Of a stretch of 64,000 bases of DNA, positions 3,741-64,000 are shown one piece after another (positions within the stretch are counted from its first letter, which is position 1; each line of letters starts with the position of its first letter). Source of the DNA: Torpedo marmorata (Eukaryota); NCBI GenBank assembly GCA_977017645.1, contig OZ360239.1, positions 72,292,001 to 72,356,000 of the forward strand, given 5' to 3'. The notes under the pieces are model-generated. The model had not been told where the DNA came from. It saw only the letters and a program-made list of their open reading frames with translations, and did no database searches. Made by a program: the position numbers and the translations under genes.

Positions 3741-3854
3741 CTGAATCTCTTCAGATTCCTCAGAAGGTAGAGTCATGGATGTGGCTTCTACACAGTTGTC
3801 TCGATGTGCTGGGCCAAGAGTGTTTTGAACACAGGTAAGGTAAATGATGTGCAT
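1932..3854 (-). pseudogene. Rex1/Babar reverse transcriptase, truncated; first ~38 aa come from flanking DNA
   Basis: RT motifs [16 protein letters not shown] and FADD are present. Motif-A Asp is mutated (FINYSS versus FIDYSS in the intact copy). No APE domain. Confidence 0.85.
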
Positions 3855-5830: not shown

Positions 5831-6463
5831 TTTCTACAGTACAATCCTGACACAAATGAAAAGTAATGAACCGTAACAGGGAATGAGCAGCCAGAGGAAG
5901 TGGTAGAGAAAGATACAATTACAACATTTAAAAGGCATTTGGACTGGTACTTGGGTGGGAAATGAGTACAGGGATAGGGACCACTGCAAGCAAATGGGAT
6001 TCGTGCAAGTGGGTATCCTGGTTGGCATGGTTGAATAGGGCAGAGGGGCCACTATTGTGCTGTACTCTAAAATGCTTTGTGATATTTTGAATAGTGAAAA
6101 CCAACTTGTGAGTGCAAACCTTACTTATGGGGCAGGATCAAAAGTACACACCAGCTATTCAAAACTACCAGTGGAGGCATCAGCAAAATCCAGTGTTCCG
6201 TTCAATGCGTTCAAGAGCTTTTATGTTACTTATCCCACGGACAGAGCTAGGCAAGGGGACAAAGAGCTGGGCTCATTGAAGGGACCAACAATCACCTGGA
6301 TAGTTGTGTGTGCTCCCTATTCACAGACGAGCATTTTCACCAATATAAAAACATTACCGTCACAGATAATCAATAAGTTTCCAACTACACAGAACATCAT
6401 ACAGATGTGTGACCTGTAATTGTTAGTTGTTCCTTTGGTGTAGGCAGCCAACATCATGGAGGA

Positions 6464-14928: not shown

Positions 14929-17900
14929 ATCAGAATCAGAATCAGAATCAGAATTTATTGTCATGAACAAGTCATGAAATTCGGTGCTTTGCGGCAGCAT
15001 CATAGTGCAATTAACATTCATATTAACCATTCTAACGACATTACTATATAAAAATTATAAACAATAGTGCACTAGTGTCTTTGGTTCATTGATTGTTCAG
15101 GAATCTGATGGCAGCAGGGAAGAAGCTGACCTTGTGCCGTTGAGTGCTCGTCTTTAGGCTCCTGTACCTTTTCCCCGATGGAAGCAGCGTGAAGAGGGCA
15201 TGGCCTGGGTGGTGGGGGTCCTTGAGGATAGAGGCTGCTTTATTAAGACATCGCCTCATGTAGATGTCCTCGATGGAGTGAAGTTTGGTGCCCGTGATGT
15301 CACAGGCCGAGGTAACAACCTTCTGGAGTTTGCTCTTGTCCTGGGAGTTGGCACCACCATACCAGGCAGTGATGCAACCAGCTAGAATGCTCTCCACGGT
15401 ACACCTGTAGAAGTTCACGAGAGTCTTTGGCGACATACCGAATCTCCGCAATCGCCTCACAAAGTATAGCCGCTGACGAGCCTTCTTTGTGATTGCATCC
15501 ACGTGGATGCTCCAGGACAGATCCTCGGAGATGTTGACACCCAGGAATTTGAAGTTCTTGACCCTCTCCACGACTGAGCCCTCGATGAGGACTGGGTTGT
15601 GTTCCCCTGACTTCCTCCTGAAGTCCACAATCATCTCCTTGGTTTTACTGACGTTGAGCTCGAGGTTGTTGTCATTACACCATTCAATGAGCTGATCTAT
15701 CTCCCTCCTGTACGCTTCCTCATTGCCGTTTGTGATTCTGCCGACAACTGTGGTGTCATCGGCAAACTTGTATATGGCATTGGAATTGTGCCTGGCCACA
15801 CAGTCATGAGTGTATAGCGAGTAGAGCAGTGGACTAAGCACGCATCCTTGGGGTGCGCCTGTGTTGATAATCAGTGAGGAGGAGACGTTGTTTCCAATTC
15901 GTACTGACTGTGGTCTTCCGATGAGAAAGTCAAGGATCCAGTTGCAGAGGGGGGTACAGAGGCCTAGAGTTTGTAGCTTCTTGACCAGCACTGAGGGAAT
16001 AATGGTATTGAAGGCCGAGCTGTAGTCTATGAAGAGCAGCCGTATGTATGAATTGCTGTTTTCGAGGTGATCCAGAGCTGAGTGGAGAGCCAGCGATATT
16101 GCATCTGCTGTGGAGCGATTGTGACGATAGGCGAATTGCAGTGGGTCCAGATCTTTGCTTAGGTATGTGTTAATTCTGGCCATGACCAGCCTCTCAAAGC
16201 ATTTCATCACCGTAGAAGTTAGTGCTACTGGGCGATAGTCGTTGAGGCAGCTCACACTACTCTTCTTGGGCACCGGGATGATTGATGCCCTTTTGAAGCA
16301 GGTGGGAACCTCTGACTGCCGCAATGAGAGGTTGAAAATGTCCGTGAACACTCCGGCTAGTTGGTTGGCGCAGATTTTCAATACCCTGCCAGGTACGCCG
16401 TCAGGGCCTGACGCCTTGCGAGGGTTCACCCTCTTGAATGATGTTCTGACGTCGCCCTCAGAGACAGATATCACAGGGTCCTCTGCCCTCTCAGGGATTC
16501 TATTAGGCACCGTTTTGTTCTTCTTCTCAAAGCGGGCATAGAAGGTGTTCAGCTCATCGGGTAGTGAAGCATCACAGCCGTCTATAGTGTTCGCCCTCGT
16601 TTTGTAGGCTGTAATGGCCTGCACTCCCTGCCATAGCTGGCGTGTATCTGTCTCTGTCTCTAGCTTCCTTCGGAATTGCCACTTTCCTTCAGAGATGGCC
16701 TTCCGCAGGTCGTGCCTGGACTTTTTGTAAAGATCCCGGTCCCCGTCTTTAAACGCCCTTGTTCTCGTCCTCAGCAAGTTGCGAATTCTTTGATTCATCC
16801 AGGGCTTCTGGTTGGGGAACACCCGGTATTTGCGCGTGGGCACACACTCATCCACGCAGGTCTTGATGAAGTCGGTGACACCTGTTGCATATTCATTTAT
16901 GTCTATGGCTGAGTGCTTGAATATGTTCCAGTCCACCGAGTCAAAGCAGTCCTGCAGACGCTCCTCCGCCTCCCTTGACCACACTTTCGCTGTCCTCTCC
17001 ACTGTTGCTGTGGACTTTAGTCTCTGCTTGTACGCCGGGAGTAGAAGTACAGCCAGGTGATCAGACTTGCCGAAGTGCGGTCGTGGTATGGCTCGGTATG
17101 CGTTCTTCACGGTGGTGTAGCAGTGGTCGAGTGTGTTGGTTCCCCTGGTCTTGCAAGTGATGTGTTGGTGGTAGTTTGTCAGTGACTTCTTCAGGTTGGC
17201 CTGATTGAAGTCTCCCACAATGATCGGGAAGGCATCAGGATGTGCTGTCTCATGGCTGTTTATCACAGTGCTCAGTCCCTCCAGTGCCAGCCTGACGTTA
17301 GCCTGGGGCGGAATGTACACTGCGACCAGGATGATGGCGGTGAACTCCCTCGGCAGATAGAATGGGCGACACTTGATCGCCAGATGTTCTAAGTCGGGGG
17401 AGCAGGACTGGGACATGACCGTCACGTCTGTGCACCACGATGAATTGATGATGACACACACGCCGCCTCCCCTGGTTTTTCCAGACGCCGGTGTTCGGTC
17501 AGCGCGGTGGAGGGTGTAGCCCTTGGGCTGTAGCGCCGTGTCCGGAATGTCCTTGTTTAGCCACGTTTCTGTGAAGCACATCACGCAGCACTCCCTGATG
17601 ACTCCCTGATGTTGAATTCTGGCTTGGAGTTCATCAAATTTGTTCTCCAAGGATTGAACGTTGGCCAGGAGGATGGTAGGGAGCGGAAGCTTCAGGTCCC
17701 CCCTTCTCAGTTTGACTTGTAGCCCCCCTCTGCGTCCCCGTGGTCGGGACTTCTTTACCTGGCCCTTGGATCCGCGTCTACGTGGTCGGGACTTCTTTAC
17801 CTGGCCCTTGGATCCGCTGCCGGTAGGTCCCGCAGTGTTTAAACGGACCGTGCGCTGTCCCTTTAAATCCTGCGCGATTTGTAATTGTGTTGAGTGCCTG

Positions 17901-18213
17901 CTGTCTGCGGCTCCCGCGAAGTTTGAACGGCCCGTTCTCTGGCCGTTTAAAACTCCCGCGGTGCCGCAGCTGTACCTGAGTGAGTTGATTGAAGGTCCCG
18001 CGGCCCGACGGAGACTGCAGCTGTACCTTCGTGAGTTCTTTAAAGGTCCCGCGGTTCCGATTCCTAGTTCTTCCAGCGATCTTTGGACATCCCCGTTGTA
18101 GGGTAAGTATGCTTTTGTGTTCCTTCTGATTTTTAGGAGTTCTGAACAGGAATACTTGATTATTCCCGTCAGAGCTGCACGCAAAGAGTCGCCGGTGCAA
18201 GGCGCCATTTTGG
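14929..18213 (-). mobile_element. Full-length Rex1/Babar LINE
   Basis: Starts at an ACCAAAATGGCGCC motif, has a single ORF, and ends in an (ATTCTG)4 tail. It appears to interrupt an older DeuSINE (about 14590-14928 and 18214-18710). Confidence 0.93.
15086..18208 (-). CDS. Rex1/Babar ORF: AP endonuclease plus reverse transcriptase, 1040 aa, uninterrupted
   Basis: APE motifs LANVQSL, FTETWL, VYIPP, GDFN, LDHCY, SDH. RT motifs FIDYSSAFN, PQG, FADD. First ATG is at 18208. Confidence 0.92.
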   Translation of the reverse strand: MAPCTGDSLRAALTGIIKYSCSELLKIRRNTKAYLPYNGDVQRSLEELGIGTAGPLKNSRRYSCSLRRAAGPSINSLRYSCGTAGVLNGQRTGRSNFAGAADSRHSTQLQIAQDLKGQRTVRLNTAGPTGSGSKGQVKKSRPRRRGSKGQVKKSRPRGRRGGLQVKLRRGDLKLPLPTILLANVQSLENKFDELQARIQHQGVIRECCVMCFTETWLNKDIPDTALQPKGYTLHRADRTPASGKTRGGGVCVIINSSWCTDVTVMSQSCSPDLEHLAIKCRPFYLPREFTAIILVAVYIPPQANVRLALEGLSTVINSHETAHPDAFPIIVGDFNQANLKKSLTNYHQHITCKTRGTNTLDHCYTTVKNAYRAIPRPHFGKSDHLAVLLLPAYKQRLKSTATVERTAKVWSREAEERLQDCFDSVDWNIFKHSAIDINEYATGVTDFIKTCVDECVPTRKYRVFPNQKPWMNQRIRNLLRTRTRAFKDGDRDLYKKSRHDLRKAISEGKWQFRRKLETETDTRQLWQGVQAITAYKTRANTIDGCDASLPDELNTFYARFEKKNKTVPNRIPERAEDPVISVSEGDVRTSFKRVNPRKASGPDGVPGRVLKICANQLAGVFTDIFNLSLRQSEVPTCFKRASIIPVPKKSSVSCLNDYRPVALTSTVMKCFERLVMARINTYLSKDLDPLQFAYRHNRSTADAISLALHSALDHLENSNSYIRLLFIDYSSAFNTIIPSVLVKKLQTLGLCTPLCNWILDFLIGRPQSVRIGNNVSSSLIINTGAPQGCVLSPLLYSLYTHDCVARHNSNAIYKFADDTTVVGRITNGNEEAYRREIDQLIEWCNDNNLELNVSKTKEMIVDFRRKSGEHNPVLIEGSVVERVKNFKFLGVNISEDLSWSIHVDAITKKARQRLYFVRRLRRFGMSPKTLVNFYRCTVESILAGCITAWYGGANSQDKSKLQKVVTSACDITGTKLHSIEDIYMRRCLNKAASILKDPHHPGHALFTLLPSGKRYRSLKTSTQRHKVSFFPAAIRFLNNQ

Positions 18214-18387
18214 TCAGTAATACGGGAATCAATCAACTCTTTTAGCTATTAGTTAAGAGATTTTTGTCCAGGGCACAGGAGGACTTCCTTTTCCAAAGTA
18301 ATGTAAAGAGATCTTTCACATTAACCTGCTCGGGGTTTTAGCTTAAAGTCGCGTCTGAAAGATGGCAGCTGAGACAGAACAGCACTA

Positions 18388-18630
18388 GTAAAACACGAAA
18401 ATCTGTAGACACTGTGGTTGAAGTAAAAAACACAAATGCTGGAGAAACTCAGCAGGTCAAACAGTGTCTTTTATGTAGCAAAGGTAGAAATACATAACCG
18501 ACGTTTCGGGCTTGAGCCCTTCATCAAAGTATGAAGGGCTCAAGCCCGAAACGTTGGTTATGTATTTCTACCTTTGCTACATAAAAGACACTGTTTGACC
18601 TGCTGAGTTTCTCCAGCATTTGTGTTTTTT
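18388..18630. mobile_element. Palindromic mini-element made of two inverted Penelope pLTR ends
   Basis: 100-bp arms at 18425-18524 and 18531-18630 with a 6-nt loop. TSD acagaacagcacta at 18374-18387 and 18631-18644. Confidence 0.9.
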
Positions 18631-21566
18631 ACAGAACAGCACTATCTTGATACTCAGCTAAACTATCAGCCAGGGTTACGTGCTCCAGGGACAAATAAGG
18701 GGTATGAATCTAAGTAAATACACAAATGAGCTGCAGAAAGTCAGCAGGTCATGCAGCATCCATAGGAATAAAATAAATAATTAAAAATAAAGGGCGGGGT
18801 TTTTCCAGCACGTTTGTGACGTTTGTGTATTGCACTCAACCCTGGCATCTGCAGACTTTCTTCTTTAACTCTAGGGGTATGAATCTATTGTTTATATTTT
18901 GGTTTTGAAATCTAAGCCCCAAAGGACAAATTAGAGACATCTAGATAAATTAGATTGAAGAATCAACACTCTTTTACGCATACTAGGCCTAGCTATTCTT
19001 TCTAGTTTTGATCCATTTCTTAAATAGATATCCAGTTGACTTTTAAGGGTATTAACCCACACACTGTTATTACTAACAAGGATAATAAATGACTGATTCC
19101 ATTCTGAAATAAATCTTGAGATCGTGTTTAAATTGCAGTCTTTATGTTTCCTCTCTTATAAAAATCTGTTTCAGACAAGAACTAGCGAATCACCTCAACA
19201 GCAATTGCTTTTAATTCAGTCCTTAAAGGGAACAAACAATATAAATCTTTTTGCAACTTAAGTAGAGTCCAGTCCACATCAAATCCCTTGACAGCCAACC
19301 TAAAGATGGAAAGCTGCCACTGAGGAAGATTCACCTCCCCATATGGAATCTGCCACTAAATGAAGTTCTTCAGGAATAAAAAATCTCCTTTCAACCATTA
19401 TAAATAACAATAACAGGCAGTCGGTGAGAATCCATCAGTCTCAGTTTTGAAGGCGGTGTTTTCTCCTATATTATCCTCTCTGTCATGTACTTCTCAGCTT
19501 TTAAAAGAGCCCCTGTCTCATACATCATTTTTATTACAAAGGTTGAAAGCCCCTGAGGGGTTTCCATTCCATGCTGTCCCACCCTTGAAGTCTAACTACC
19601 CCCAAGAACCTTTAGCTCAAAGACAGCAACAATTCCAAGCTACAAGGAACAAATTACCATCCCAATTAAAGGTCCTTTAACATTAAAAAGGCCTGGACAG
19701 CTCCTAACTGCGGCACAAAGTGACTTTCCAGTCAGATCAGCATAAATCTGATCAATCCCAAAACTCAGATTTTGTTTACACTCTTAAAGTGCTGCTGAAT
19801 GGAATCTGTTAGATTAGGATGGTCTAACAGACTTAAAGATTTCAACCCAGGCAACAAGGTGTAAATGTAGTAAATCAATCCCTTCTCAATGACATGAATG
19901 ATGGAAATGTTTAAATCGTGTTCCACTCTACAGGTCAAGTGTGAAAGATGTTCAAATGTAAAAATAAATGCATTTTTATTGATTAGCCATTATCATTGTG
20001 AACATTTTTGTTTCTTACTTCACTATAACATAATGTGTTGTGGTAAATGGTTTTGATAAGGACAGCGCATCAGCTGGGACACGGATCGAGTGGAGGGTTG
20101 GTGTCACCATCAGCAGCAGCTCAATTTCCTGATGTGCAACCTGGCATGAGATTTCATAGGAAGGACCGGCGAGCAGCGTGGCATAGGGAGACCGAGAAAG
20201 GCTGCAGTGGTGGAAATTTGCAATTGTAGGACAAGAATTTCAAGAACATTTCTGTTAAGGTGAAGACTGCCACTCTTCTCATGAGTTACTTTCACTCTTC
20301 TACACTTTTCCCTCACTCCTCCCTTCCTCTCTCCACCTATTTCCTTTCCATTTTACTCATCTCCTCCTCCCACAAGTACTGAAGTCACTCTCTCTCCCAT
20401 TATTCTGTCCTCTCACCTGTTTATTTGTTCTGTGCATTCTTTGCTTTGATCTTTGCTCTCTTCATTTGCGTACACACTCCTGAGGTCAATTTTCATGGCA
20501 CCATAGGGCAATGCCTCACCCATCAAAGAAGTCTTCAGCTGCCATTTACACAGTGAAGTGACAAGAAAGTTAGAGGTAATTACAGTGATTCAGCGCAAAG
20601 TAGAGGAGGACTAAAACTTGAAATTCTCTGACTCATGCTCTCTTAAAATGCCTCCAAACTGGGTGTACAGGAGTACTGAATGAGTACACAAGGTGAACAA
20701 TTCAATCACCCTCGCTGAGGGGGATTAATTCAGTACAGAAAATCCAAAAAAAGTAACTATGCATAGTTTGAAACAAAAATAGCTGTAAAATTTCAGGAGC
20801 TCAGTCATCAAGTGGGGGAAGGAAAGAAAATAAAACAATCTTTCTGATTTAGCTGGGAGCCATCTTCAAAACTCCCAACCACTTTGGAAACTTTACTTCT
20901 TCCAGCAGCTCATTGGGCAATGAAGAATCTTTCTTCAACCCACAATACACTTAGTCAATTGAAAGACAAGTAAGGTATTTATTAACAGAACCTTTTTAGT
21001 CTAATGAATAGCTAAGGCAGTAATCAATTTGTTGATGCAGCTTTGACTTTTAAACCTCACAATTTATTATATAAATTATAGTAATTTGTATGTAAATGCC
21101 AGATCCTGCTGCCTAGTGGTTCAATTAGAAAGCAGCATGAATTCAGGCTACACATCAAATAACTAGTACATTAGACGCTTTAAATGGAAGATAATCCTTC
21201 TTCCTTTGTAAGGAAAATCCCAGAAGGAATATCCTTTCTGTGTCACCCTGCATAAGACTTAAAAAGGTTAAAATTGATCGGGACAATTCTTGAGAATGTA
21301 ATTTTGTTAATAGCAATATCACAAAAAATAGAAAGCTGTTGTAATTATTGACCACATATACAATTACCAATTTTTTAAATTGAAACCAAGAGAATATAAA
21401 AATCTAGAACTTATAAACTGTTAGTAATGGAAGTAACCGTGAAGCAGTAGGTGTCATTACAACCTAACTGCTTCATAATGCCCTATAGGAAGGAGAAAGT
21501 GCCCTTAACTGCTATAGCCTACATAGAATCAAGCCCGATATCTATGTGGTTGAATCGTATAACCAT

Positions 21567-24980: not shown

Positions 24981-25127
24981 AAGGAAGAGAATCAGGCATG
25001 GTTCAGAATTGAGAATTAGTCAGCAAAAAGATTGTTCAGAGATTGGGAAAATGTGGTGGGCTTGTTTAGAGAGAAGCTTAGGCCAAGATTGGGGATAAGT
25101 TCGGAGTGGTAGGCAGGAAAGGGGGGG

Positions 25128-26478
25128 TAAAAAACACAAATGCTGGAGAAACTCAGCAGGTCAAACAGTGTCTTTTATGTAGCAACGGTAGAAATACATA
25201 ACCGACGTTTCGGGCTTCAGCCCTTCATCAAAGTATGAGAAAATGCCGGCAGGCGTCCGAACAAAAGAGTGAGGGGGGATGGGGGGGGGGTGGCAAAGGC
25301 AGGAGATGATAGGTGGAGAAAGGAGGGAGGGGACAGCAGCAAAGAGGGGGAGGAGGGATGGCTGGGTGGGTGGAAAAAAACAGGAAGGACAGGTGAGGGG
25401 AGGGGGGGAAGGAAAAGACAAGCAGGTTTAGTGGAAAGCAGAAAAGTCAATGTTAATGCCATCTGGCTGGAGAGTGCCCAGACGGAAAATGAGATGTTGT
25501 TCCTCCAATTTGCGGGTGGTCTGGGTGGGATAGTACATAAGACCATGGACAGACATGTGAGTGTGGGAGTGTGACTCGGAATTGAAATGGTTGGCTACTG
25601 GGAGGTCGCTGTTGTTGCAGACGGAGAGAAGGTGCTGAGCAAAGCGATCTCCCAATGTACGACTGGTCTCTCCGATGTAGAGAAAGCCACAAAGGGAGCA
25701 CCGAATGCAGTAAGTAAGTTCTCTGGATGTACAAGTGAAGTGTAGTTTCACTTGAAAGGCCTGTTTGGGGCCCCAGACCGTGGTGAGGGGGGAGGTGTGG
25801 GCGCAGGTGTTGCACCTCCTGCGGGCATAAGGGAAGGTGCCGGGGGTGCGATGGGTGGGGAGGGATGAGTGCACGAGGAAATCACGGAGGGAGCGGTCCC
25901 TGCGGAAGGCCGAGAGGGGAGGAGAAGGAAAAATGTGTCTGGTGGTGGGATCTTGTAGTAAGTGCCGGAAATTCCGGCGGATAATGTGTTGGATGCGGAA
26001 GCTGGTGGGGTGCTAGGTGAGGATGAGGGGGATTCTATGTTTGTTGCATCTGGGGGCAGAGGGGGCCAGGCCAGATGAGTGGGAAATGGAGGAGATGCGG
26101 GTGAGGGCTGAGTTGATGGTGGTGGAGGGGAAGCCAGGTTTGTGGAAAAAGGCAGACATTTCAGAAGATCTGGACTGGAACACCTCATCTTGGGAACAGA
26201 TGCGGCGGAGACGGAGAAATTGAGAGAAGGGGATGGAATCCTTGCAGGGGACAGGGTGTGAGGAAGTGTAGTCCAGATAGTTGTGGGAGTTGGAGAGTTT
26301 GTAGTAAATGTCGGTGGAAAGCTTGTCTCCTGAAATGGAGACAGAGAGATCCAGGAAGGGGAGAGTGTTATTGGAGATGGACCAGTTGAGTTTGAGATCG
26401 GGGTGGAAGTTGGATGCGAAGTGGATGAAGTTGACAAGCTCATCGCGGGTGCATGAGGCAGCCCGATGTAGTCGTCGA
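25128..26478 (-). mobile_element. Penelope-like element, 5'-truncated
   Basis: YCIRCSLCGFLYIGET GIY-YIG motif and a pLTR. Same family as 6464-8342. Confidence 0.9.
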
Positions 26479-26819
26479 AAGGAGGGGGCAGGGGGAGTGG
26501 TAGGAAAAGGTGAGAAGATTGTGCTGGGATCAAGGTAAAAGATCCTTCCAGGGTCAGGATATCAGTTGGTAAAATATATAGGACAGTGTGGAAGAGATGG
26601 AATCAATCATTGAAAAAACTAAATGGGATTGAGGATGAGTTGGAGTGATGACAGCCAACATTGGGAGCAGGGGGCAAAAATCAGCAGGTCGAATGACATC
26701 CGTGGATGCAAAGGGATGGTCGACCCTGCATAAGGACCATGGAGGGGATGGGGTTGCTTCTTAGCTTTGAGTCAACATTGATCATCATTCTTAGCTATGA
26801 GTCAACATTGATTAACATT

Positions 26820-28335
26820 GAACATCATTCAAGAGGGTGAACCCTCGCAAGGCGTCAGGCCCTGACAGCGTACCTGGCAGGGTACTGAAAACCTGCGCCA
26901 ACCAACTAGCCGGAGTGTTCACGGACATTTTCAACCTCTCATTGCGGCAGTCAGAGGTTCCCACCTGCTTCAAAAGGGCATCAATCATCCCGGTACCCAA
27001 GAAGAGCAGTGTGAGCTGCCTCAACGACTATCGCCCAGTAGCACTAACTTCTACTGTGATGAAATGCTTTGAGAGGCTGGTCATGGACAGAATTAACACG
27101 TACCTAAGCAACGATCTGGACCCACTGCAATTCGCCTATTGTCACGATCACTCCACAGCAGATGCAATATCGCTGGCTCTCCACTCAGCTCTGGATCACC
27201 TCGAAAACAGCAATTCATACATACGGCTGCTCTTCATCGACTACAGCTCGACCTTCATTACCATTATTCCCTCAGTGCTAGTCAAGAGGCTACAAACTCT
27301 AGGTCTCTGTACCCCACTCTGCAACTGGATCCTTGATTTTCTCATCGGAAGACCACAGTCAGTACGAATTGGAAACAACATCTCCTCCTCACTGATTATC
27401 AACACAGGCGCACCCCAAGGATGCGTGCTTAGTCTACTGCTCTACTCGTTATACACCTATGACTGTGTGGCCAGGCACAATTCCAATGCCATCTACAAGT
27501 TTGCCGATGACACCATAGTTGTCGGCAGAATCACAAACGGCAATGAGGAAGCGTACAGGAGGGACATAGATCAGCTCGTTGAATGGTGTAACGACAACAA
27601 CCTTGAACTCAACGTCAGCAAAACCAAGGAGATGATTGTGGACTTCAGGAGGAAGTCAGGGGAACACGACCCATTCCTCATCGAGGGCTCAGTAGTGGAG
27701 AGGGTCAAGAACTTCAAATTCCTGGGTGTCAACATCTCCGAGGATCTGTCCTGGAGCCTCCACGTTGATGCAATCACAAAGAAGGCTCGCCAGCGGCTAT
27801 ACTTTGTGAGGTGTCTGAGGAGATTCGGTGTGCCACCGAAGACTCTCGTAAACTTCTACAGGTGTACCGTGGAGAGCATCCTGGCTGGTTGCATCACTGC
27901 CTGGTATGGAGGCGCCAACTCTCAGGACAAGAATAAACTCCAGAGGTCTGTTAACTCGGCCTGTGACATCACAGGCACCAGACGTCACTCCATCGAGGAC
28001 ATGTACATGAGGCGGTGTCTTAAAAAATCAGCCTCTGTCCTCAAAGACCCCCACCACCCAGGCCATGCCCTCTTCACTCTGCTACCATCGGGAAAAAGGT
28101 ACAGGAGCCTAAAGACAAGCACTCAGCGGCACAAAGACAGCTTCTTCCCCGCTGCCATCAGATTCATGAATAATCAATGAACCAAAGACCATGCATTACT
28201 TTTCGTGCACTATTATTTATATTTTTTATAGTAATGTCATAAGATGGTTATAATATGAATGGTTGTACTATGATGCTGCCGCAAAACACCGAATTTCATG
28301 ACTTGTTCATGACAATAAATAAATTCTGATTCTGA
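26820..28335 (+). mobile_element. 5'-truncated Rex1/Babar LINE
   Basis: RT ORF followed by a CATGACAATAAA...TTCTGATTCTGAT tail. Confidence 0.92.
26837..28180 (+). pseudogene. Rex1/Babar RT, truncated open frame
   Basis: 447-aa frame with PQG and FADD motifs. Lacks APE and a native start. Confidence 0.85.
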
Positions 28336-29105
28336 TCTGTCTACTTACATCACAAAACTAAATGAAATGGTCTGAACTAAAGGCACAAAGCCAACGCATA
28401 CAGGGTTAGGTGGATTTCCTGAACAGAAAGTTGAAGGGTTGGAAATAGGGTTTTGATGCAGAGAGGAAAGGAAAATTTGAGTAATATAAACAGAAGGCAA
28501 ATCGTAAAGTAAAAGCTTTATCCCAGAGTAAAAATACCAAATGCTGGAGGACATGTGTTTCAGGTGAGGGTGAGGGGAAGTTTAAAGGAGATTTGCAGGA
28601 CAAGTTTTTTTAAACAGTGTGGTGGATGCTTGCCAGGGGCAGTGGTGGAGCAATGGCATCGAATAGGTTTCTCGATAAACACATGAATATGTAGGAAATA
28701 GAGGGATATATGAATCACGTGTAGGCAGAAGGAATGCAGTTTAATATGGCATCATGTTCGTCACACACATCATGGGCTGAATTGGCTGTTCCTGTGCTGA
28801 TAAACAAGAAAATCTGCAGATCATAGGGGTCTAGTGCAGTACACAAAAGTGCTGGAGAGACTCAACAGGTCATGCAGCATTCAGAGAAAATAAAAGGAAG
28901 TCAAAAGCCCCTTTCACACTGCTAAACCTTCAAAAAGGCGAGTAAACGACCCGTGTTGCAGTACCCGGTGAGCCGTTCACACTGGACCATGAATTACCTG
29001 GTTCATGTGGATATCGCGAATCTAAGGGGGGCCCAACCTCCAGCGGTGACGTAGCGAGTGACGCGTTACGTACTCGCAAGAAGTGCAATTTCTCAGTTCT
29101 CAATA

Positions 29106-30665
29106 ATGGCGGACGAATATGAGTTTCGGATGATGGCCCTGCAAATCTGTGGCTCTCTCACAAAACAGGCAAGTGTTATCAACATATTTATCAATAATAT
29201 GATGCAAACTGTGGCTGAAGAAGACTGTTTGTTATCGGAGAATATGAAGAGAAGCAGGGAGGTGTTTGAGGAGGAAACACAAGCAGAGCTGTCAAGCCGT
29301 AGACGAAGACGTCTGGTTATTTTGAGGCATTTTGAACGTCAAATTAATAATAGAACAATGTGGAGGAGAGAGAGACCACAGGGGCCCGTGTTCTGGTCCA
29401 ACATGCTATGTAAATATGATGACGAACAGTGGTGGAACCATTTTCGAATGTTTAGGAGCACCTTCATCTTTGTATGCGAGCTCCTCGAGCCAGAACTGAG
29501 GCACAGGGGAACAAACTGCAGAAAGCCTATGGAACCTCAGCTCTGACTTGCCATCGCTTTATGGTGGTATGCCACCCCACGTGAATATCGATCCATCAGT
29601 TGTCTCTTTGGTGTGAGTATCTCCACTGTGTGTACGGTGGTATCCCAAGTTACTGTCGCTTTGAGGGCGACCCTTATGAAACGTTTCATCGACCTGCCGA
29701 GTGGTGCACGCCTCCAGGAGACAATCGACAGGTTTGCAGAAAAAAATTATCCAATGTGTGCTGGTGCCATCGACGGCACACATATTCCCATCGTTGCCCC
29801 ACAGGAGGACGCAACATCCTACTTCAATCGGAAAGGGTGGCACTCCGTTATTCTTCAAGCTGTTGTTGATCACAACTGCCGGTAAGGATCATTTTGACTG
29901 AGTTAAAATTATCGGTCTTCACCGATGAGTGTTTTCCATATGACAATCAATACATTGTGCTTTTGTGGTTCCAGCTTCACAGATGTGTATGTGGGTTGGC
30001 CTGGTCGCACCCATGATGCTCGAGTTTTAGCCAACTCGTCCATTTACAGAAAGGATGCAGGCGGGTATCTCTTCCCACGTGAAGTAAGTCAATATGCCCC
30101 GCTGTACAGTGATGTTCGTGTAGCTCAAACAAATGAAATGTGTCTCCTTGCGACATGTGCATGAAAAGGTCACAAACGTGTGTATGTATAGACCTAAGGA
30201 GGGCCTGTATGAGATACCTAAACTTCTGCATTGCTCTGCCCACAGGTATCCAAAAACGTGAACGGAGTGGAAATACCTGCACATTTGATCGGGGACCCCG
30301 CCTACCCCCTCAGGAATTGGCTGATGAAGGGGTTCACGAACCACCATGCTCTTGATCAATGGAAGCGAAAATTCAATAACCATCTGAGCTTGGCACGGAT
30401 TGTGGTCGAGAATGCCTTTGGACGTCTCAAAGGTCGCTGGAGGCGCTTGAGCAAACGACTTGACATCAGTACCGCTTCAATGTCTGATGTTGTTATTGCC
30501 TGTTGTGTCCTGCATCATATATGTGAGATTAACAAGGATCACTTCTTTCCAGAGTGGAACACTTCTGAGGTGCAGGATTTCCCTAAGCCAGATAGAGTTC
30601 CTTATCGGGGTGCAACAGCGCGGGGACACCAGACTATCCGCGAGGCTATTATGTCCATTCTGTAA
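29106..30665 (+). pseudogene. Harbinger DDE transposase, 3 exons (29106-29881, 29975-30083, 30246-30665), one in-frame TGA at 29544
   Basis: Motifs GAIDGTHI, FTDVYVGWPGRTHDARVL, IGDPAYPL, VENAFGRLKGRW and ACCVLH. The GT-AG introns join the motifs in frame. Confidence 0.88.
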
Positions 30666-30921: not shown

Positions 30922-32172
30922 TTAATCTTCCTGCAAGTAATGGAGAAAGGAGGAGGAAGAAGAAGGATTAAAAGATTTGTTTCCATCCTCCGATTGAGTC
31001 CTGCTGCCCTCCCCAGTCCCCGGAAAGGAATAATATTGAGGTGGGGAGGCAAGAGGGTATTGCAGGTGTTGTAGTCTTTGGTGCATTGGGGAGGATGGAT
31101 GTTGGAGGGAGGGAAGCAGAGGATGAAGGGGGATGGGCAGAGGGTGGAGGGAGGATCGCGGCGCGTGGAGGCGGACAGGAGAGTCAATCACACTCAGCAT
31201 ATCGCGCATCATACTAGTTTGCTCATGGATCTCCTGCTGCAGGCTTGCCATCATGTGTGCAAATCGATCCACGCTTCTCTCCCACACATTATGGTGTGTG
31301 CGCTGCATCCTCTCCTCTCACTCCACTCTCCTCTCATGACACAGGCGGTCACGCTCCTGGTCGATCTCCCTCAGATCTCCGTGGTGACCTCCTGTGTCTG
31401 GGTGGGCCTCCTCCTCTTCCCCCTCCACTCCGATCCTGCAGAGGAATGGAACACATGTGAAATGAGCCAGGTGACTCTTCATGGGCAAACGGAGGAAACA
31501 CATAGGAAAAATTGGACTCATGAACAATGCAGTTTTACCTGGCTGCTGTTGCGGCTCTGCAGTCGACGTGTTGGGGGCATTCGTTTAGTCCGTGGCCAAA
31601 TCCCTTGCACTGGTTTGCGCCACCGGCTCGGAGGCTGTCTCGCTGGCGGGGGGCGGCTCACTGGGGTGGCCCGTCTCGCTGGGGTGTCCCATCTCGCTGG
31701 GGTGGCCCGTCTCACTGGGGTGGCCCGTCTCACTGAGGTGGCCAGTCTCACTGGGGTGTCCCGTCTCGCTGTGGGGGGGGGGGGTGGTGTCTCGCTGGGG
31801 GTGGCTGTCTCGCTGGGGCATGCGGTGTCGCTGGGCCCCGGCCTCTCCAGGTTGGATCTCAGGGCCACAGGGAATGCCAATCGGCTGACACCCCCAGATC
31901 TGGTAGGCCAATTCAAAGTAAGGCCATTCCAGCCGGCCTCTTCCACTCCTACCATTATGATCAATTACCTGAAGAAACTTCTTGCGAAGATTCTTCAGTT
32001 GATTTATCACTTGTGTTTTGTCCCTGGAAAACCCTGCGTCCCTGAGCCTGGCGGTGACCCTCTCATACATAGGGCCATCTCTTACAGTCCACGTAAAATG
32101 TTTAGCCACCTCTGCCTCTGCTCTTATGGAGTGCAGCTCCCGCACCTCTCGATCCCCCCAGTTGGCAGCCAT
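30922..32172 (-). pseudogene. Harbinger Myb/SANT-like (trihelix) DNA-binding protein, frameshifted
   Basis: MAANWGDREVREL...KNLRKKF...WPYFE trihelix domain, then Pro/Ser/Thr repeats, a probable intron at about 31438-31538, and a coiled-coil-like C-terminus. Confidence 0.8.
31660..31835. repeat. 18-bp minisatellite (ctcgctggggtggcccgt) within the Myb gene
   Basis: About 9 degenerate tandem units. Confidence 0.85.
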
Positions 32173-32621
32173 AATCACAACACTAAAACTACAGTAACAA
32201 TACCACACACTAATACTAATACCTACACTAAAATCCTTCCAAATATAACTACACTGATATTAAAACTACACTGACACTACATTAAAATCGACACTAAAAA
32301 CTTTCCAAGACAGACCACACTAACCTTGCCTCCATTCTACCTGGGCACATTGACTTTTTTACCACCAGACTGACGCACGCACGCAGGCACTGACGTCACT
32401 AATGGTACCTGGTAGAGCCGGTTGCCCATTCACATTGCAGTCTACCAGGTACCAAGTCAAATCCGAGTCAACTCGGCCAGGCTCTGATACAACCCCCTAC
32501 CAAGTGTCAGAGCCCGTTGACTTTTACCCCCCCTGCCCGGTTGGGACCATTCACACTGCCAGGTGACCCACTAAATTGCCCGGTTCAACCCACGTTATTT
32601 GGCAGTGTGAAAGGGGCTAAA

Positions 32622-37002: not shown

Positions 37003-38340
37003 TTAGAACCCTTCAAAATCACTTTCGCTATCATCGTCTGAGGCAAAGATCTCGGCAAGCACATCCGGGGTCTCACTGTTTAAACAGTCATCGTACGGGT
37101 CCCAGTCTGTATCTGATGAGGCGGCTTCAGCTTCGTCGTCAGTGTCCCACAATAAATCATCTTCCGTACCATCAATTGCACAAGAGATACCGCACTTTTT
37201 AAACGATTTTATTACAGTCTCTACTTTCACTTTGTCCCATGCCTTGAGCACGAAGTCACACAGCACATCAAGCGATGCAGCACGCATTGCCCCGCCTTTT
37301 GTAAATGATTTTTCTGCACTCGACATCCATGTATTCCACTCTTCACGCACGTGGTCTTTGAATGGCTTGTTCAAGCAGACATCGAGAGGTTGCAATATAG
37401 ACGTCAAACCACCCGGGATAACCGCCATGTGAGTATTATGTTGTGCTAATGTACTTTTAGTCTTCTCAGTTAAGTGGCTACGAAACATATCCCAGACCAG
37501 CAAACTCCGTTCCTTGCGTAAACCGCCTGGCCGCCTGTTCCACACATTGTCTATCCATAGTTTTACACCATTTTCATCCATCCATCCTTTTTCATGAAAA
37601 TGTACAAAAATACCTGCTGGGAAATTCATCTTAGGTTTAAGTTTGCGCTTGAAGATTACCATGGGTCTTAACTTTGTCCCGTCGGCCATGCACGATAACA
37701 CCGCAGTAAACCTGGTCCTTTCATGTCCTGTACTCCTGGTTTGTACAGTTTTCACACCTTTCCATTCCACTGTTCTATTGCCTATCATGTCAAAATTCAT
37801 GGGGGTTTCGTCCATGTTTCCAATATTTGCCAATGCAAACTTGTGTTTCTTCCGGTTACGTAAAATAAACTGGTGAAAACTTACAACTTTATGATCAAGA
37901 TCTTTTGGTAGTTTCTGAGCAATTTTAGTTTTTTGTCGTAATACCAGATTTTTCCTGTTCATAAAACGGTTGCACCAGCCTACTGAAGCTTCAAAATCAT
38001 TACTGAGTTCTGGGTGCGACTTTGCCCAGTTCAGTGCAAATGTTCTTATTTTATTTCGGGTGACTATGTAGCAATCTTGCCTCTGTTCACGTACCCATGC
38101 TGCTACATGATTTTCCAACTCTGGCCAACGAGTGATTCCTCTTCTCATGGAACATTGCCTTTTTGGTATTTTTCTTAAAGTCTCTTCTTTCTTCCTCCAA
38201 TCTCTTACCAACTTCTCATATATACCAAATTTTCTTGCAGCAGCACAGTTGTTGGTTTTCTTGGCCATTTCTATTACTTTCAATTTAAAACTCGCCTCAT
38301 ACTTTCATCGTTTCAATTGAGCCTTCAATGGAGCCTCCAT
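37003..38340 (-). CDS. pogo-type transposase (BrkDBD-like, HTH CENP-B, DDE_1); TGA at codon 12
   Basis: GNMDETP, VWDMFRSH and QPLDV, with 35 aa between the last two Asp. From ATG 38340 it reads MEAPLKAQLKR*KYEASFKLKVIEM. Confidence 0.88.
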
Positions 38341-38356
38341 AACAATCACCTCCAGC

Positions 38357-38732
38357 CAACGCCCAGCAGCTCAATGATCGCGATCGTTATGGGTCGACCT
38401 ATACGCCGGTCAACGCCCAGCAGCTCAATGATCGCGATCGTTATGGGTCGACCTATACGCCGGTCAACGCCCAGCAGCTCAATGATCGCGATCGTTATGG
38501 GTCGATCTATACGCCAGTCAACGCCCAGCAGCTCAATGATCTCGATCGTTGTGGGTCGATCTATACGTCATTCAACGGCCAGCAGCTCAATCATCGCGTT
38601 TTTTTAGGGTCGACCTATACGCCGGTCAACGCCCAGCAGCTCAATCATCACGTTTTTTGAGGGTCGACTTATACGCCGGTCAATGCGCAACATCTCAGGC
38701 ATCGAGATTTTTGGGGTCGACTTATACGCCGG
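38357..38732. repeat. 54-bp subterminal tandem repeat containing the TIR core motif
   Basis: About 7 units, each with a GGTCGACYTATACGCCG-like core. Confidence 0.9.
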
Positions 38733-47372: not shown

Positions 47373-47637
47373 TGATAGGCCTATCAATAATCACTCAAGA
47401 GACTATGAGTGGAAACGAACCATAGGCTTTTATTATCATTAAACACAGCTACAGTCGACCTGCAGATCTGATCCCGGACTGTGGGCGGAGCGGTGGCACA
47501 ATGGCCTTTATTCAGGTGAGGAAGGGGGAGGGATTACCGGGACAACCAGGGGAGGGGGAGGAGACACCGGGACAGACCGCAGGACATGCCCATACTACAC
47601 CCTAGCACACAATATACCTAAACAGTGGTTTACCACA
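47373..47637 (-). mobile_element. Solo LTR related to the Gypsy LTR at 54502
   Basis: Minus strand reads TGTGGTAAACCAC...AATAAAGGCC...AATAAAAGCCT...TTATTGATAGG..TCA. Confidence 0.8.
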
Positions 47638-48625
47638 TTGGGTAACAAAAACAATCTGCTAGAGGAACTCAGCAGGTCGAGCAGCATCAGCGGGCAAAAA
47701 AGAAATGTCACGTTTCGAGTCAGAATCCTTCATCAAGACTGCTCCAAATTTCAGCATCTTCCGTCTCTCGTGTCTTTAGTTAACTTGTCTTGAGTTTTTC
47801 CAGCTCCTAAATTTCAATGGGCACTTAAATTGATGACGTAAAGCATGATGTCAGCAATCTTTCAAGCTGCCATCCATATGTGTGTAACTTATCCCTGCAG
47901 AATGAAGGATGTGATTTCCCACAAATGAGGACACATTTTAACTGTGTTATGCTTGACTGTGTGCACCAGTTAAATAAAGTGATAAAATACAAAAATTGCT
48001 AATCATAACAGTTAAGGTCAAAAGAATACAAGAAAATATCAGAAGGGGACTTTGCCCCTCAAGCTTGGCCCGCCACTTAAGATGATCACGGATGATCTAT
48101 AATGGCCTGATCCCTCAATTCCCTGATCTTTCAAAAATTGATTCATCTCCACGATAAATACTAAAGATCTATCCTCCAGAACTCTGGGCACAAAAAATGG
48201 AAGGGATTCACCACCCTATTCAAAAATAAATGTCTACACACTTCCCATTTTGAATAACGGGCGACTTATCTTGTAACTGGGTCCCCCTTGTTTGAGATTC
48301 TATCACCATGAAAACATCTCAACATCTGAACTTTAACACTCTGGTGTCCACAGTTTCACAATTTTGAGGTTGTTTATAGTCTCCTGGTGCCTATCATCAT
48401 GTGCCTTGTGTGGTTGCCAACTTGCTGGTGGAGGTTAGCCCTTTTCTTATAAGAGCACAGCAGGCCATTTGGCCCATGAGTCTATACTGGTTCCAAATGC
48501 ATTTCCATTCGTCCCATTGGCCCCTCCTTATTTTTCTCGTATTACTGTAAGTTATCCTCTCTTCTACATGCTCATAATCTCCCCTTTGATTCTTTTTATC
48601 ATTAATCTGCATCAAGAGCTCATTA

Positions 48626-48874
48626 CACACCGAAACGCTGGAGGAACTCAGCCGGTCTTTCAGCATGCACAGGAGACAAAGATATATTGCCGACATTTCG
48701 GGCCTGAACCCTTCTTCAAGGAATAATCTGCTTATTCCTTGAAGAAGGGCTCAGGCCCGAAACATTGGCAATATATCTTTGTCTCCTATGGACTCTGAAA
48801 TACCTGCTGAGTTCCTCCAGCACTTCGATGTGTTCTTACTACAATCACAGCGACTGCAGACTTTTGTGTTTTGC
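48626..48874. mobile_element. Palindromic Penelope pLTR mini-element (second subfamily)
   Basis: Inverted ~100-bp arms around 48727-48731. TSD tcaagagct(c/a)atta at 48612-48625 and 48875-48888. Confidence 0.8.
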
Positions 48875-54501: not shown

Positions 54502-54749
54502 TGTGGTAAACCACTTTATATGTATTGTGGCCTGAGGCAGGTATGACCATGACCTGTCTGTCTGTCCCGGTGACCCCTCCCCTTTTACCTGGAATAAAGG
54601 CCTTGAGCCAGCAACTCCTCCCCCAGTTCCGGGACAATCCAGCAGGGATCATCAGGTCAAGTCATAGCTAGCCCTGGCTTGATTCTGCTAATAAAAGCCT
54701 GTTAATTCCTGCACTTCTAGACTCGTGTCGGTTATTGATAGGTACGTCA
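54502..54749 (+). mobile_element. Gypsy 5' LTR
   Basis: TG...CA termini, an AATAAA, homology to the solo LTR at 47373-47637, and position directly upstream of gag. Confidence 0.85.
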
Positions 54750-54781
54750 ATTTTATTAGCAGTTTCAACGAAATACGATCA

Positions 54782-57118
54782 ATGGAAAATTTGTTGAAGC
54801 CAGACAAGCTGGACATCGACCCCCTGGCCCAAGACACTGCCAGCGATTTTGAACTTTGGCAACGCTGCTTCTTAGCCTACATGAGATCGTCTGGAGCAGC
54901 TACTGACGAGCAGAAACTCGATATCCTCATGTCTAGGGTAAGCAAGCGAGTGTATGGCGCCGTCAGAGACTGTAAGACTTTCGATGATGCTTTGGTCGCC
55001 CTCCAAACGCTGTACCTGACGCCTGCGAACGAGATTTTTGCAAGGCACCGGATATCGCAGCGGTACCAGCGACCCGGAGAGTCGGTCTCCGAGTATATCC
55101 AAGATGTGATGTTAATGGTGCGAGCGTGTGCATGTCGAGCCCTGACGGCTGAGCAACACTCCGAGATGCTGGCAAGGGACACTATTATAAAAGGGATCAG
55201 GTCAGGCTACATCCGCCAGCGATTGCTGGAACACGCTGACCTGACCCTGAAATCGACTGTCCAGAACATCCTGAATCTGGACTCAGCCCTGAAGAACGCT
55301 GACGCTATGCAGGCACAGCCTGCTTCGTGGATCGCCCCAGCCGTCAGCCCTACAAGCAACGCGACCGCCGCTGCCGTCTACCGGGACCCGCTTGCCGCCG
55401 CCGACGCTATCCGTGAGTTGGCCGCTGCCGCCGCTGCCCGAGAGCCCGCCGCTACCTGTGAGTTAACCGCCGCCGCTATCACCCGGGAGCCCGAGAAGTG
55501 CTACTTCTGCGGGCTCGACAAGCACCCGCGCAAGCGCTGCCCGGCCCGAGACGCGACTTGTTCTAGCTGTGGCAAGAAAGGCCACTACGCTAAGGTCTGC
55601 CGCTCCAAGTCGCGCACGGGTCCGAGCAGCGCCGCGTGCGAGGTACGGGAGCGGCCATCTTCCTCGACTCCACTTCCGGCGGAGACCTCGTGCGAGGTCT
55701 GGAGGCGGCCATCACAGCGCACCGCACTTCCGGTTTCCAGCGGCGCCACGTGCGACGGGAGGGGGCGGCCATCTTACATGACGTCACTTCCTGCGGGGAC
55801 CTCGTGCGAGGACTGGAGGCGGCCATTTCCGATCTCTACATTTCCGGCGCGGCCATTTTGTAATCTCACCGCAGCACTTCCAGCACTTCCAGCTCCACCC
55901 TCCCGTAGCGACACGTATGAGCTACGGGAACTGCCACCGGATCAAGACGTCTCGTCGGATCAAGACTCCGTCTCGACCCTCTCGTCGGATCAAGACTCCG
56001 TTTCGACCCTGGCATCCGTGACGCTGGACCAGAGCGCGCCCCATCAACTGTCCAGGTCGATGATGGACATTATCGTTGAGGGGCATAAGACCACCTGCCT
56101 GTTCGACACAGGCAGTACTGAAAGTTTTATTCATCCGGACACTGCCCAGCGCTGTGGCCTCACCGTTGTACCGGTAAGCCAGAGGGTGGCCATGGCGTCT
56201 GGAACGCACACAACAGACATCCGGGGGGGTTGTGTGGCGAATATAGTGGTACAGGGCACGGAATACCGAGAATTTTCACTGTTAATCATGCCTCGTTTGT
56301 GTGCTCCTGTACTGCTGGGGTTGGACTTCCAAAGCCACCTGCGTAGCGTCACCATGCACTATGACGGGCCCCACCCCCCGATCGTAGTGACTAACCCCCA
56401 ATATTTAACTAACACGCCCCAGACTACCTGTGGTCTCTCCACGCTAAAGACCCAACCCCCGCCACTCTTCGCCAACCTGACCCCTGACTGTAAGCCCATC
56501 GCAACTAAAAGCAGGCGATACAGTACAGGGGACAGGGCATTTATTAAGGCGGAGGTGCAGCGTTTACTGGGGGAAGGGATCATTGCACCCAGTAATAGCC
56601 CCTGGAGAGCTCAGGTAGTGGTGGTGAAGAACGGGGCTAAGAGTCGGATGGTGGTGGACTATAGTCAGACCATCAACCGGTTCACACAACTGGACGCCTA
56701 TCCGCTGCCAAAGATCGCGGATATGGTCAACCAGATTGCCCAATTTAAAGTGTTCTCCACCATCGACCTTAAGTCGGCTTACCATCAGCTCCCGATCCGC
56801 CGGGAGGACCGAGTATACACCGCTTTCGAGGCGGACGGCAGATTATTCCATTTTCTGCGCGTCCCCTTCGGGGTAACAAATGGGGTATCCGTGTTCCAAA
56901 GGGAGATGGACAGGATCATTGACCAGTTCAAGCTCACTGCCACCTTCCCGTACCTGGACGACATCACCATCTGTGGTCATGACCGCCAGGATCACGATAG
57001 GAACCTTCGGAAGTTCTTACAGGCGGCCGAGACGCTGAACCTCACATATAATAAGGAGAAATGCGTGTTTGGGACTACCCGACTCGCTATCCTGGGGTGC
57101 GTCGTGGCATCTTTCTAA
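54782..57118 (+). CDS. Ty3/Gypsy (Mag-like) gag-pol polyprotein, truncated inside RT
   Basis: Zinc knuckles CYFC..H..C and CSSCGKKGHYAKVC, protease LFDTGS, and RT motifs IDLKSAYHQ, PFG, YLDD. No RNase H, integrase or 3' LTR. Confidence 0.9.
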   Translation: MENLLKPDKLDIDPLAQDTASDFELWQRCFLAYMRSSGAATDEQKLDILMSRVSKRVYGAVRDCKTFDDALVALQTLYLTPANEIFARHRISQRYQRPGESVSEYIQDVMLMVRACACRALTAEQHSEMLARDTIIKGIRSGYIRQRLLEHADLTLKSTVQNILNLDSALKNADAMQAQPASWIAPAVSPTSNATAAAVYRDPLAAADAIRELAAAAAAREPAATCELTAAAITREPEKCYFCGLDKHPRKRCPARDATCSSCGKKGHYAKVCRSKSRTGPSSAACEVRERPSSSTPLPAETSCEVWRRPSQRTALPVSSGATCDGRGRPSYMTSLPAGTSCEDWRRPFPISTFPARPFCNLTAALPALPAPPSRSDTYELRELPPDQDVSSDQDSVSTLSSDQDSVSTLASVTLDQSAPHQLSRSMMDIIVEGHKTTCLFDTGSTESFIHPDTAQRCGLTVVPVSQRVAMASGTHTTDIRGGCVANIVVQGTEYREFSLLIMPRLCAPVLLGLDFQSHLRSVTMHYDGPHPPIVVTNPQYLTNTPQTTCGLSTLKTQPPPLFANLTPDCKPIATKSRRYSTGDRAFIKAEVQRLLGEGIIAPSNSPWRAQVVVVKNGAKSRMVVDYSQTINRFTQLDAYPLPKIADMVNQIAQFKVFSTIDLKSAYHQLPIRREDRVYTAFEADGRLFHFLRVPFGVTNGVSVFQREMDRIIDQFKLTATFPYLDDITICGHDRQDHDRNLRKFLQAAETLNLTYNKEKCVFGTTRLAILGCVVASF

Positions 57119-62642: not shown

Positions 62643-64000
62643 TCAATACAGACGAGGAGCCTTCTGGATAAATTTACAAAGGAAACATAAAAGACAAAAC
62701 CCCAGTACTACAAGAGTGATAGTAGTGACCCAGTGAATGGCAATAGCCCACCAACTCCCCAGAGCCCCAAAGGGCCACCAGCTTCTCCAGGAGGAGTCAT
62801 GATGCAGGAACTGGTCCCTCAATTTTTCAATATTACCCACGGACTCTTGGCTATGCTCTGCCAGATAAGTGATGTTCCCCAATTCGTCAGGAATGTAAGT
62901 GCAGCACTCTTTACCAATCACTGCACAGGTACCACCTTCAGCGGTAAGTAGGTAGTCCAGGGCCATCCGGTTCTGCAAGGTAACCATGCGGACGGCCGTC
63001 AGCTCTGCTGCCACTCGAGTCAGAACATCCTCCATATGCCGCAGTACCACAGCCGTCTCGTTGGCCAGCGTCTCCAGCACACTGGTCATGTGCATTATTT
63101 CGCGGGACAGGCAGCCAATGCCATAGTGGGGGAAGGCGATCATGCAGAACCTTTTTGCATCAGTGATTGCCGTTCTTCCCTGGTATCCGCGGTAGGCTGG
63201 GTGCTCCCCGAGGTCGTTAAGGTGGTGGATATAAGGAACAACATATCCTGGAAAGCAACAACCGTACCATCCCATGTGGAGCCAGGGGTAGGCGCAGTGT
63301 CCGCATATCCAGTGAGTGCCATTGAGTGTCCAGGGAGCCCCCAGCTTTGCTGCGCCCTCGGCTGTGGACACTGGCGTACCTGGGTACCATTCTCACTCAC
63401 ACTCGCTGTGCCCTACCGACAGGTTCAACCAGTGCTCATCAAAACATCTGCACCAACATTCCCCAGCCCTGTTCACCAGTTGGGGAGTCGCTCTGAGAGT
63501 CGGGACTTTAGTGCTTCTCAGATGGTAGAGAGGAAAAAACCAGTTCGTGAAACACCCACCCCACCTGGGGTCACTAGATCCAATGTTGTGTAAGGGGGAG
63601 GTAGGTGGGAGGTCTAATATTTAACTTCTATTTATGTAAATTTGCTCTATGGTCCTCGAGAAACGCTACCTCATCTATACTGTGTATTGCATTAGTAGTT
63701 ATGGTATGAACGACAAATAAAGGTGATTTGACTTGACTTGAGGTCACTGCCCCCCCCACCCCCATACAACAGAACACCGAAATTCGTGTAATTAACCAGT
63801 TTATGCAAACAGTCCATTTCTCTGGTGTCGAATGGGATGGACGTAAGTGGAAGTCCCTCAGCAGCGTGCGCCAGAGTTTGCATGCAGACCCAGCAATTCG
63901 ATCTGTTGGTGCTGCTGGCGTATTCGTAGGCCATCCTGAGGAACATGTTGTAGGCTAACACGACGCCGATCGACGCAGTGATGGTCAATAGTGTTTTCAA
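62643..64000 (-). pseudogene. env: Gamma-type retroviral envelope (SU disrupted, TM open); runs off the window
   Basis: SU CWVC motif, immunosuppressive domain LQNRMALDYLL, CX6CC (CAVIGKECC) and a hydrophobic TM anchor. Frame is broken at about 63400-63690. Confidence 0.88.

Follow-up and report, generated by a model that had tools for sequence, protein, structure and literature searches.

How does a Gypsy element prime its reverse transcription when the position directly behind its 5' LTR, where a tRNA primer-binding site (PBS) is expected, holds the complement of a segment of its own LTR? We addressed this question in a stretch of 64,000 nucleotides from the Torpedo marmorata genome (contig OZ360239.1, positions 72,292,001 to 72,356,000 of the forward strand; hereafter the window), whose features are collected in Table 1. 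The element at issue is a young Ty3/Gypsy LTR retrotransposon without a tRNA primer site. Near-identical copies of it are numerous in its own genome, and all 12 full-length copies that we fetched possess twin LTRs 99.2-100% identical to the window LTR, a 5-bp TSD and a polypurine tract (PPT), which excludes an LTR boundary elsewhere with a canonical PBS behind it, an alternative raised by an earlier, sequence-only reading of this DNA. That reading had also noted the lack of a TGG after the LTR end at 54749, and indeed a single A (54750) is followed immediately by the 12-mer of the PBS position. The family has one gag-pol frame in the order PR-RT-RH-IN and the TG...CA termini, TSD and PPT of Ty3/Gypsy LTR retrotransposons, while the window copy itself ends within RT near 57108 and is without RNase H, integrase and 3' LTR. 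No Chromo family was found after the integrase at E<=0.1 in four of four proteins, and Chromo was absent from the precomputed domains of the 120 homologues listed. Tandem repeats in the gag frame at 55617-55844 and 55940-56010 (114-nt and ~30-nt units) vary in number from copy to copy; the LTR start forms a small hairpin (54502-54514), and in many sister subfamilies the LTR closes with a perfect 14-nt palindrome (LTR ends L058, L073).

Table 1. Features of the window, in order of position; positions count from its first base.
Feature	Position	Strand	Basis or remark
Young LINE-family copies	1932-3878, 15086-18232, 26822-28180		90-95% identical; one with a 1048-aa open frame
Inverted repeats, near-perfect, 102 bp	18423-18632, 48625-48833		loops of 5-6 nt
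Facing frames	29055-29546 / 31585-32259	+ / -
433-aa frame	37003-38304	-	adjoins 54-nt tandem array 38298-38729
Solo LTR, sister family	47373-47637	-	265 bp; arm and PBS each differ at two positions
5' LTR	54502-54749	+	248 bp, TG...CA; twin LTRs and 5-bp TSD in 12/12 full-length copies
Putative TATA-like motif AATAAAGG	54593-54600	+	in 17/18 subfamilies; 32 nt before CAGT A in 13/14 having both
Putative Inr-like motif CCAGTTC, candidate start A 54625	54623-54629	+	fixed spacing to TATA-like motif
Arm, candidate self-primer	54685-54696	+	overlaps AATAAA; exact PBS complement; covariation
Helix 2, 5' side	54697-54706	+	begins at first post-arm base; fold; 4-bp core in 18/18 own and 14/19 metagenomic families
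Helix 2, 3' side, in U5	54734-54743	+	fold and variant comparison
Spacer A, unpaired	54750	+	A in 35/37 families; no Watson-Crick pair with post-arm base, one G-U
PBS position, arm complement, no TGG	54751-54762	+	TGG absent from first 6 nt (0/37 families)
gag-pol frame (twin CCHC, protease, partial RT)	54782-57108	+	copy broken off inside RT
249-aa frame, retroviral envelope TM-like	62643-63392	-	immunosuppressive-domain-like stretch, CX7CC, membrane anchor

The 249-aa frame, whose three labelled stretches we take to be features of an envelope TM subunit, is probably an endogenous retrovirus fragment; the 433-aa frame presumably resembles a pogo/Tigger-type DDE transposase and the facing frames, on the same kind of assumption, Harbinger nuclease and Myb/SANT genes. 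The family of the 102-bp inverted repeats also flanks Penelope-like RT fragments at ~6460-8300 and 25100-26600.

Comparison of the LTR with the leader confirmed that the PBS position (54751-54762) is the exact reverse complement of the arm (54685-54696), as the earlier reading had claimed, with the match stopping at both ends. A prediction for the sister family of the solo LTR came true as well: among 30 loci of that family 2 were 5' LTRs, and both continued with an A and then TTTTATTATCATT, the 13-nt complement of their own arm. As controls, six further Gypsy-type LTR pairs, from 12 regions of the same genome, self-paired over only 3-5 nt, and TGG was present in five.

Within the T. marmorata genome, a pattern made of the LTR end plus the first seven PBS bases gave 14,604 matches, and of the first 30 of these, 29 were perfectly paired to their own arm over 11-17 nt and one was mismatched. 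The 18 distinct PBS variants of this genome revealed two-sided changes in four columns, one of which held all four pair types. Two near-identical subfamilies (2,147 and 1,426 junctions) differ by a single arm base, and in 60 copies picked by PBS alone to assess arm/PBS combinations we found 30 C:G pairs, 30 T:A pairs and no discordant one; the closest copies of opposite type are separated by just 3 other differing sites in 308 nt, and on the tree the switch between C:G and T:A is one event. Copies with a perfect 17-19-nt duplex (24 loci, e.g. L338, L360 and L369) have arisen recurrently yet are rare, and an over-long arm/PBS duplex may be selected against.

Distant relatives were sought by scanning metagenome contigs with RT peptides, a search blind to the PBS that returned 80 loci, 46 of them with a Gag start; 5 of these were without a usable leader, which left 41 for assessment. 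Perfect pairing over 11-18 nt from LTR end +1 was seen in 28 of these protein-selected loci, and the other 13 comprised 2 paired from +2, 9 decayed family copies with mismatches or small deletions and 2 with an interrupted arm. Two scans of viral contigs for the clade gave no loci. For the statistics we joined the 18 own variants with 19 metagenomic families (one intact copy each, 47-65% identical to the window family in RT-RH) into a set of 37 families or subfamilies, from which L157, L161, L162/164 and duplicates were excluded. At positions 1-11 of the duplex 406 of 407 cells in these 37 chosen families or subfamilies were Watson-Crick and none was G-U, a figure that is inflated because family representatives were picked among copies with intact pairing. 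Over positions 5-11 the count was 258 of 259, against a mean of 158 and a maximum of 187 in 20,000 permutations that ignore kinship. The register was constant: in each of the 37 families used the PBS began at LTR end +1, and the adjoining bases, spacer and post-arm base, never formed a Watson-Crick pair. The pairing weakened across positions 12-18, with position 12 paired in 32/37. LTR segment and PBS therefore covary, with compensatory changes, among the 37 families or subfamilies, which is the pattern that the sequence-only reading had proposed to look for among relatives. As separate observations, a splice-acceptor-like pyrimidine tract plus CAG lies tens of bases 5' of the arm end in L124, L134, L142, L159, L161 and L168, and L121:640-780 contains an 18-nt direct repeat with one copy upstream in the LTR and the other directly after the PBS.

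The arm does not stand by itself in the predicted RNA fold. A second helix begins directly after it in 32/37 families and contains G-U in 13 of 128 cells, unlike the primer helix. The predicted structure (z -2.76) folds the 5' arm onto the PBS, 54 nt away, and under this model the arm is predicted to be cut between 54696 and 54697. We found no conserved third duplex of the 'pretzel' kind; two helices are conserved.

A further line of evidence came from insertions in which the base after the PBS is other than the normal T. The query for these returned 107 matches, versus 16 for a control pattern, and among the 100 of 107 junctions listed that base was A in 81, C in 12 and G in 7, A being the base that continues the complement. 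We read the first 30 loci plus all 56 further A loci, and 73 of the 81 A junctions run on for at least 17 nt as the complement of LTR sequence upstream of the arm, a share of ~2% of junctions (73 against 3,573). These chimeras comprise 24 short conversions, spread over 11 sequence backgrounds, after which the normal leader resumes; 12 intermediate cases that switch after 29-101 nt, in most instances to internal sequence, 11 of them stopping within 78 nt (p ~5e-5 for this clustering under a uniform null that ignores decay with distance); and 37 that extend as far as the LTR 5' end. In the sister family the same run-on was seen in 7/7 matches, where the pattern itself had already fixed 17 nt of complement.

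Several chimeras bear the marks of integration, with exact 5-bp TSDs around L358, L367, L395 and L392. Seven long chimeras have a complete host-flanked first LTR, and of these three have an exact TSD, one has a TSD matching at 4/5, two run on through the PPT, in one case with an exact TSD beside the far 3' LTR, and one, L342, with its inverted flanks, may reflect an event at the host level; for the 3'-LTR fold-backs L401, L402 and L404 no matching 5' LTR was found, and hence no TSD was readable. L358, L367, L395 and L340 are mini-insertions of ~445 bp in which an LTR and an A are followed by an inverted LTR; both termini are U3, and the 5-bp TSD is exact in three of the four. Chimeras L325, L364 and L365 share a stop at 66-67 nt, and two of them, from different subfamilies, share a landing site; an inverted repeat at ~54563-54570 / 54629-54636 may stall RT. 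Truncated LTRs did not accumulate at the predicted cut, where only 1 of 34 anchored cases lay (L329).

The chimeras make it likely that in vivo the arm/PBS duplex serves RT as a primer-template junction and that RT is able to rewrite the PBS with the arm as source; the lack of G-U pairs would follow from such rewriting. They could alternatively represent homology-driven template switching, whatever the primer. In addition, the 37 long chimeras pass any plausible cap site and so require DNA fold-back or a 3'-end template, and for this reason chimeras alone are not proof of a primer in the 5' arm.

Where the arm lies relative to the cap depends on the transcription start. The earlier reading had suggested a start near 54685, and this was not supported: the TATA-like and Inr-like motifs, 32 nt apart, suggest a start at ~54625, 72 nt upstream of the arm end in the window family. 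Across the own subfamilies the motif pair stands at variable distances, 51-75 nt, from the arm end. The extensions of two chimeras break off at 70-73 nt and that of one sister-family chimera at 47-52 nt, the motif of that family standing at 53; microhomology blurs all three endpoints. The metagenomic families are without the TATA/Inr-like pair, and their AG at -11/-10, conserved in 17-18/19, could represent a Tf1-like start. Two other candidates were dropped, namely a start exactly at the arm's first base, for which the Inr scan had no single peak, and splice-junction priming, a lead from BEL elements, which was rejected because the pairing runs through the AG at -11/-10 and the leader is too short to hold an intron. 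No cap signature was seen by eye at the first mismatch.

Taking pairing, register and chimeras together, we hold it highly probable that the element primes itself in some form, and we lean, with fair but lesser assurance, to priming by the 5' R copy of the arm in the manner of Tf1. Under this model the 5' R arm would pair with the PBS and stack on helix 2, which starts at the next base, and the element's RNase H would cut at the helix junction 54696/54697, as in Tf1. RT would then extend the new 3' end across the spacer A, the first base copied, and U5, and the resulting 54-nt strong-stop DNA would jump to the 3' R. During plus-strand synthesis the PBS would be remade with the primer as template, and this copy-back would keep arm and PBS strictly Watson-Crick, with overshoot yielding chimeras. 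The arm would probably lie ~60 nt downstream of the cap in the window family, unlike in Tf1. Against the model, a long unpaired primer leader has no place in the Tf1 scheme, and the R overlap left by a strong-stop DNA of 54 nt would be short.

The best-surviving rival, which we nonetheless regard as unlikely, is self-priming by the 3' R copy of the arm, located either on the same genome RNA or on one packaged with it. In that case strong-stop DNA would reach the cap and an R of ~70 nt would drive the first jump, a scheme compatible with transcription beginning 72 nt before the arm end. Chimeras in which arm, U3, PPT and 3' UTR are copied, and which therefore require a 3'-end template, represent four independent events (L389, L392, L374 and the L322-324 tandem), with an exact TSD in L392. 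Against this scheme, the predicted structure brings together the PBS and the 5' arm, which are just 54 nt apart, ~31/37 long chimeras stop at the LTR terminus, as expected of a fold-back of plus-strand DNA, and 35/36 short and intermediate chimeras lie within 78 nt.

It is improbable that the hairpin serves mainly to hide AAUAAA in the 5' LTR while another RNA primes. AATAAA does lie within the arm in 17/18 own subfamilies, as does AATAAA or ATTAAA in 12/19 metagenomic families, and the pairing partner lies outside the LTR, so that the 5' end alone would be masked. However, in 7/19 metagenomic families the arm has neither hexamer (in L132 it terminates with GAAGA), and 3 of the 7 carry the hexamer further downstream, beyond the arm; because several relatives are thus without it, masking is not the general purpose. 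Hiding would also tolerate G-U and a loose register, unlike what we observed, and there is no room for a second PBS, the ATG coming 15-45 nt after the LTR in most families. Of the two options that the sequence-only reading had offered, singly or together, self-priming is the one that covariation, register, helix 2 and chimeras argue for, and masking, which fails as a general purpose, may be a side benefit in the own-host families.

A tRNA half or another host RNA as primer is very improbable. Passages of PMC6317226 tell of Copia lineages that use tRNA-half priming, and the tRNA set compared here, 32 genes of 7 isotypes only, is incomplete; in the comparison with tRNAs that had been proposed earlier, the longest match of the 18 own PBSs to those 32 genes was 4 nt. 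None of the 37 PBSs has a TGG, and the PBS changes in step with its own arm across the four pair types, as would not be expected of host RNAs. Finally, there is next to no probability left that the pairing is a chance match of AT-rich sequence or that the LTR boundary is misplaced: the arm core is AT-rich and 27 of 9,086 sampled window positions get to at least 12 nt (as do 3 of 20,000 dinucleotide shuffles of the LTR), but TSDs fix the boundary in 12/12 copies, arm and PBS covary and the predicted sister-family PBS was found.

The place of the element among Gypsy lineages bears on how this priming arose. Two CCHC knuckles are a Mag hallmark, and the earlier description of the Gag as Mag-like stands for its twin zinc knuckles and apparently not for the RT, which seems no nearer to putative Mag-type elements than it is to Ty3: with four tRNA-type elements from the same genome, putatively Mag-type, RT-RH scored 173-179 bits at 29-30% identity, versus 183 bits against Ty3. 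Two of these four have twin knuckles and a TGGCGAC PBS, a combination that we take to be Mag-type. The RT phylogeny that had been suggested earlier, here a quick unrooted tree of 39 rows, placed 34 in one separate clade with a long stem (SH-aLRT 99) and did not group them with the putative Mag-type elements, which fall outside it; as the tree holds no named Tf1, sushi, Mag or MolGy rows, the clade may already have a name, and structure and atlas comparisons yielded none. Among named proteins the nearest are those of rays and sharks (78-84% in RT-RH), and nematodes, a sea anemone and a damselfly also have named clade members, identified there at the protein level. Other young Gypsy families of this genome have tRNA-type PBSs, namely twin-knuckle elements and elements ending in RNase H (L304, L310; L303, L309, L313), the latter presumably of Gmr1-like order.

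Comparison with known systems revealed both likeness and difference. Passages of PMC7175516 and PMC10085805 describe the self-priming mechanism of Tf1, and these together with parts of PMC4600332 present a PBS that complements an LTR segment, without a tRNA site, in Tf1/Tf2 (S. pombe), Tj1 and Tf1/sushi, as well as an 11-nt invariant core and a duplex adjoining the primer helix in the Tf1/sushi group, all as in the window element. Unlike Tf1/sushi, the window clade is without a chromodomain, has a twin-CCHC Gag and a one-base spacer, ends its arm in (T)AAA followed by RCC, and conserves two helices, not three; unlike in Tf1, the primer is probably not at the cap in the window family. With the Mag lineage (A, B and C clades) the element shares two CCHC knuckles and, going by PMC3286476, a 5-bp TSD, short LTRs and a single frame, whereas Mag elements, according to the same paper, use tRNA-Ser, Leu or Arg, a type of PBS that the window element lacks. 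Self-priming has been predicted for TAR/Houba/Osr-1 Copia and Tcn1 from at least 10 nt of LTR complementarity just after the 5' LTR (PMC6317226), and those, unlike ours, belong to another superfamily or to a chromovirus clade, in plant hosts. Retroviruses copy their primer into the plus-strand PBS and Ty1 and Ty3 do not inherit a primer copy, as sections of PMC7472051 relate; the PBS here would likewise be rewritten from the primer, with the element's own LTR and not a tRNA as template. On present sequence grounds, the element appears to work like Tf1 but lacks the chromodomain and the three-duplex pretzel that are Tf1/sushi criteria.

To our knowledge, self-priming has been proven in fission-yeast Tf1 only, and it is usually tied to chromoviruses. 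Some animal Gypsy families may already be labelled self-primed in Repbase entries, which could lower the novelty of our observations. We found no description of self-priming in a non-chromovirus animal Gypsy clade in the literature, including the portions consulted of PMC3601003, PMC6317226, PMC3286476, PMC3587641, PMC10085805, PMC6238403, PMC4600332, PMC2864245, PMC8556966, PMC12440569, PMC11673190, PMC5445492, PMC5006619, PMC7175516 and PMC7472051, and the supplements of mollusc/annelid surveys may name the clade; the available parts of the Troyka and Kuafuortervirus papers held no passage on primers.

Tentatively, and with more doubt than belief, we propose that in an animal-wide Gypsy clade self-priming evolved independently of Tf1/sushi and relies on another kind of primer, an internal arm that lies ~60 nt from the cap or is the copy in the 3' R and that is released where two helices meet, with the PBS rewritten from the LTR each round and overshoots recorded in ~2% of junctions of this genome. 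If each round rewrites the PBS from the LTR, primer and site would co-evolve automatically. The chimeric insertions offer a means of deducing from genome sequence alone which primer is used, and perhaps also its length and the start site. If our reading is true, this would be a second, large clade of self-primers, one without chromodomains and with 14,604 matching junctions in one vertebrate genome, and escape from the host tRNA would be either repeated or ancient. Such elements would also lie beyond the reach of silencing by tRNA 3' fragments, a consequence that we draw from passages of PMC7472051.
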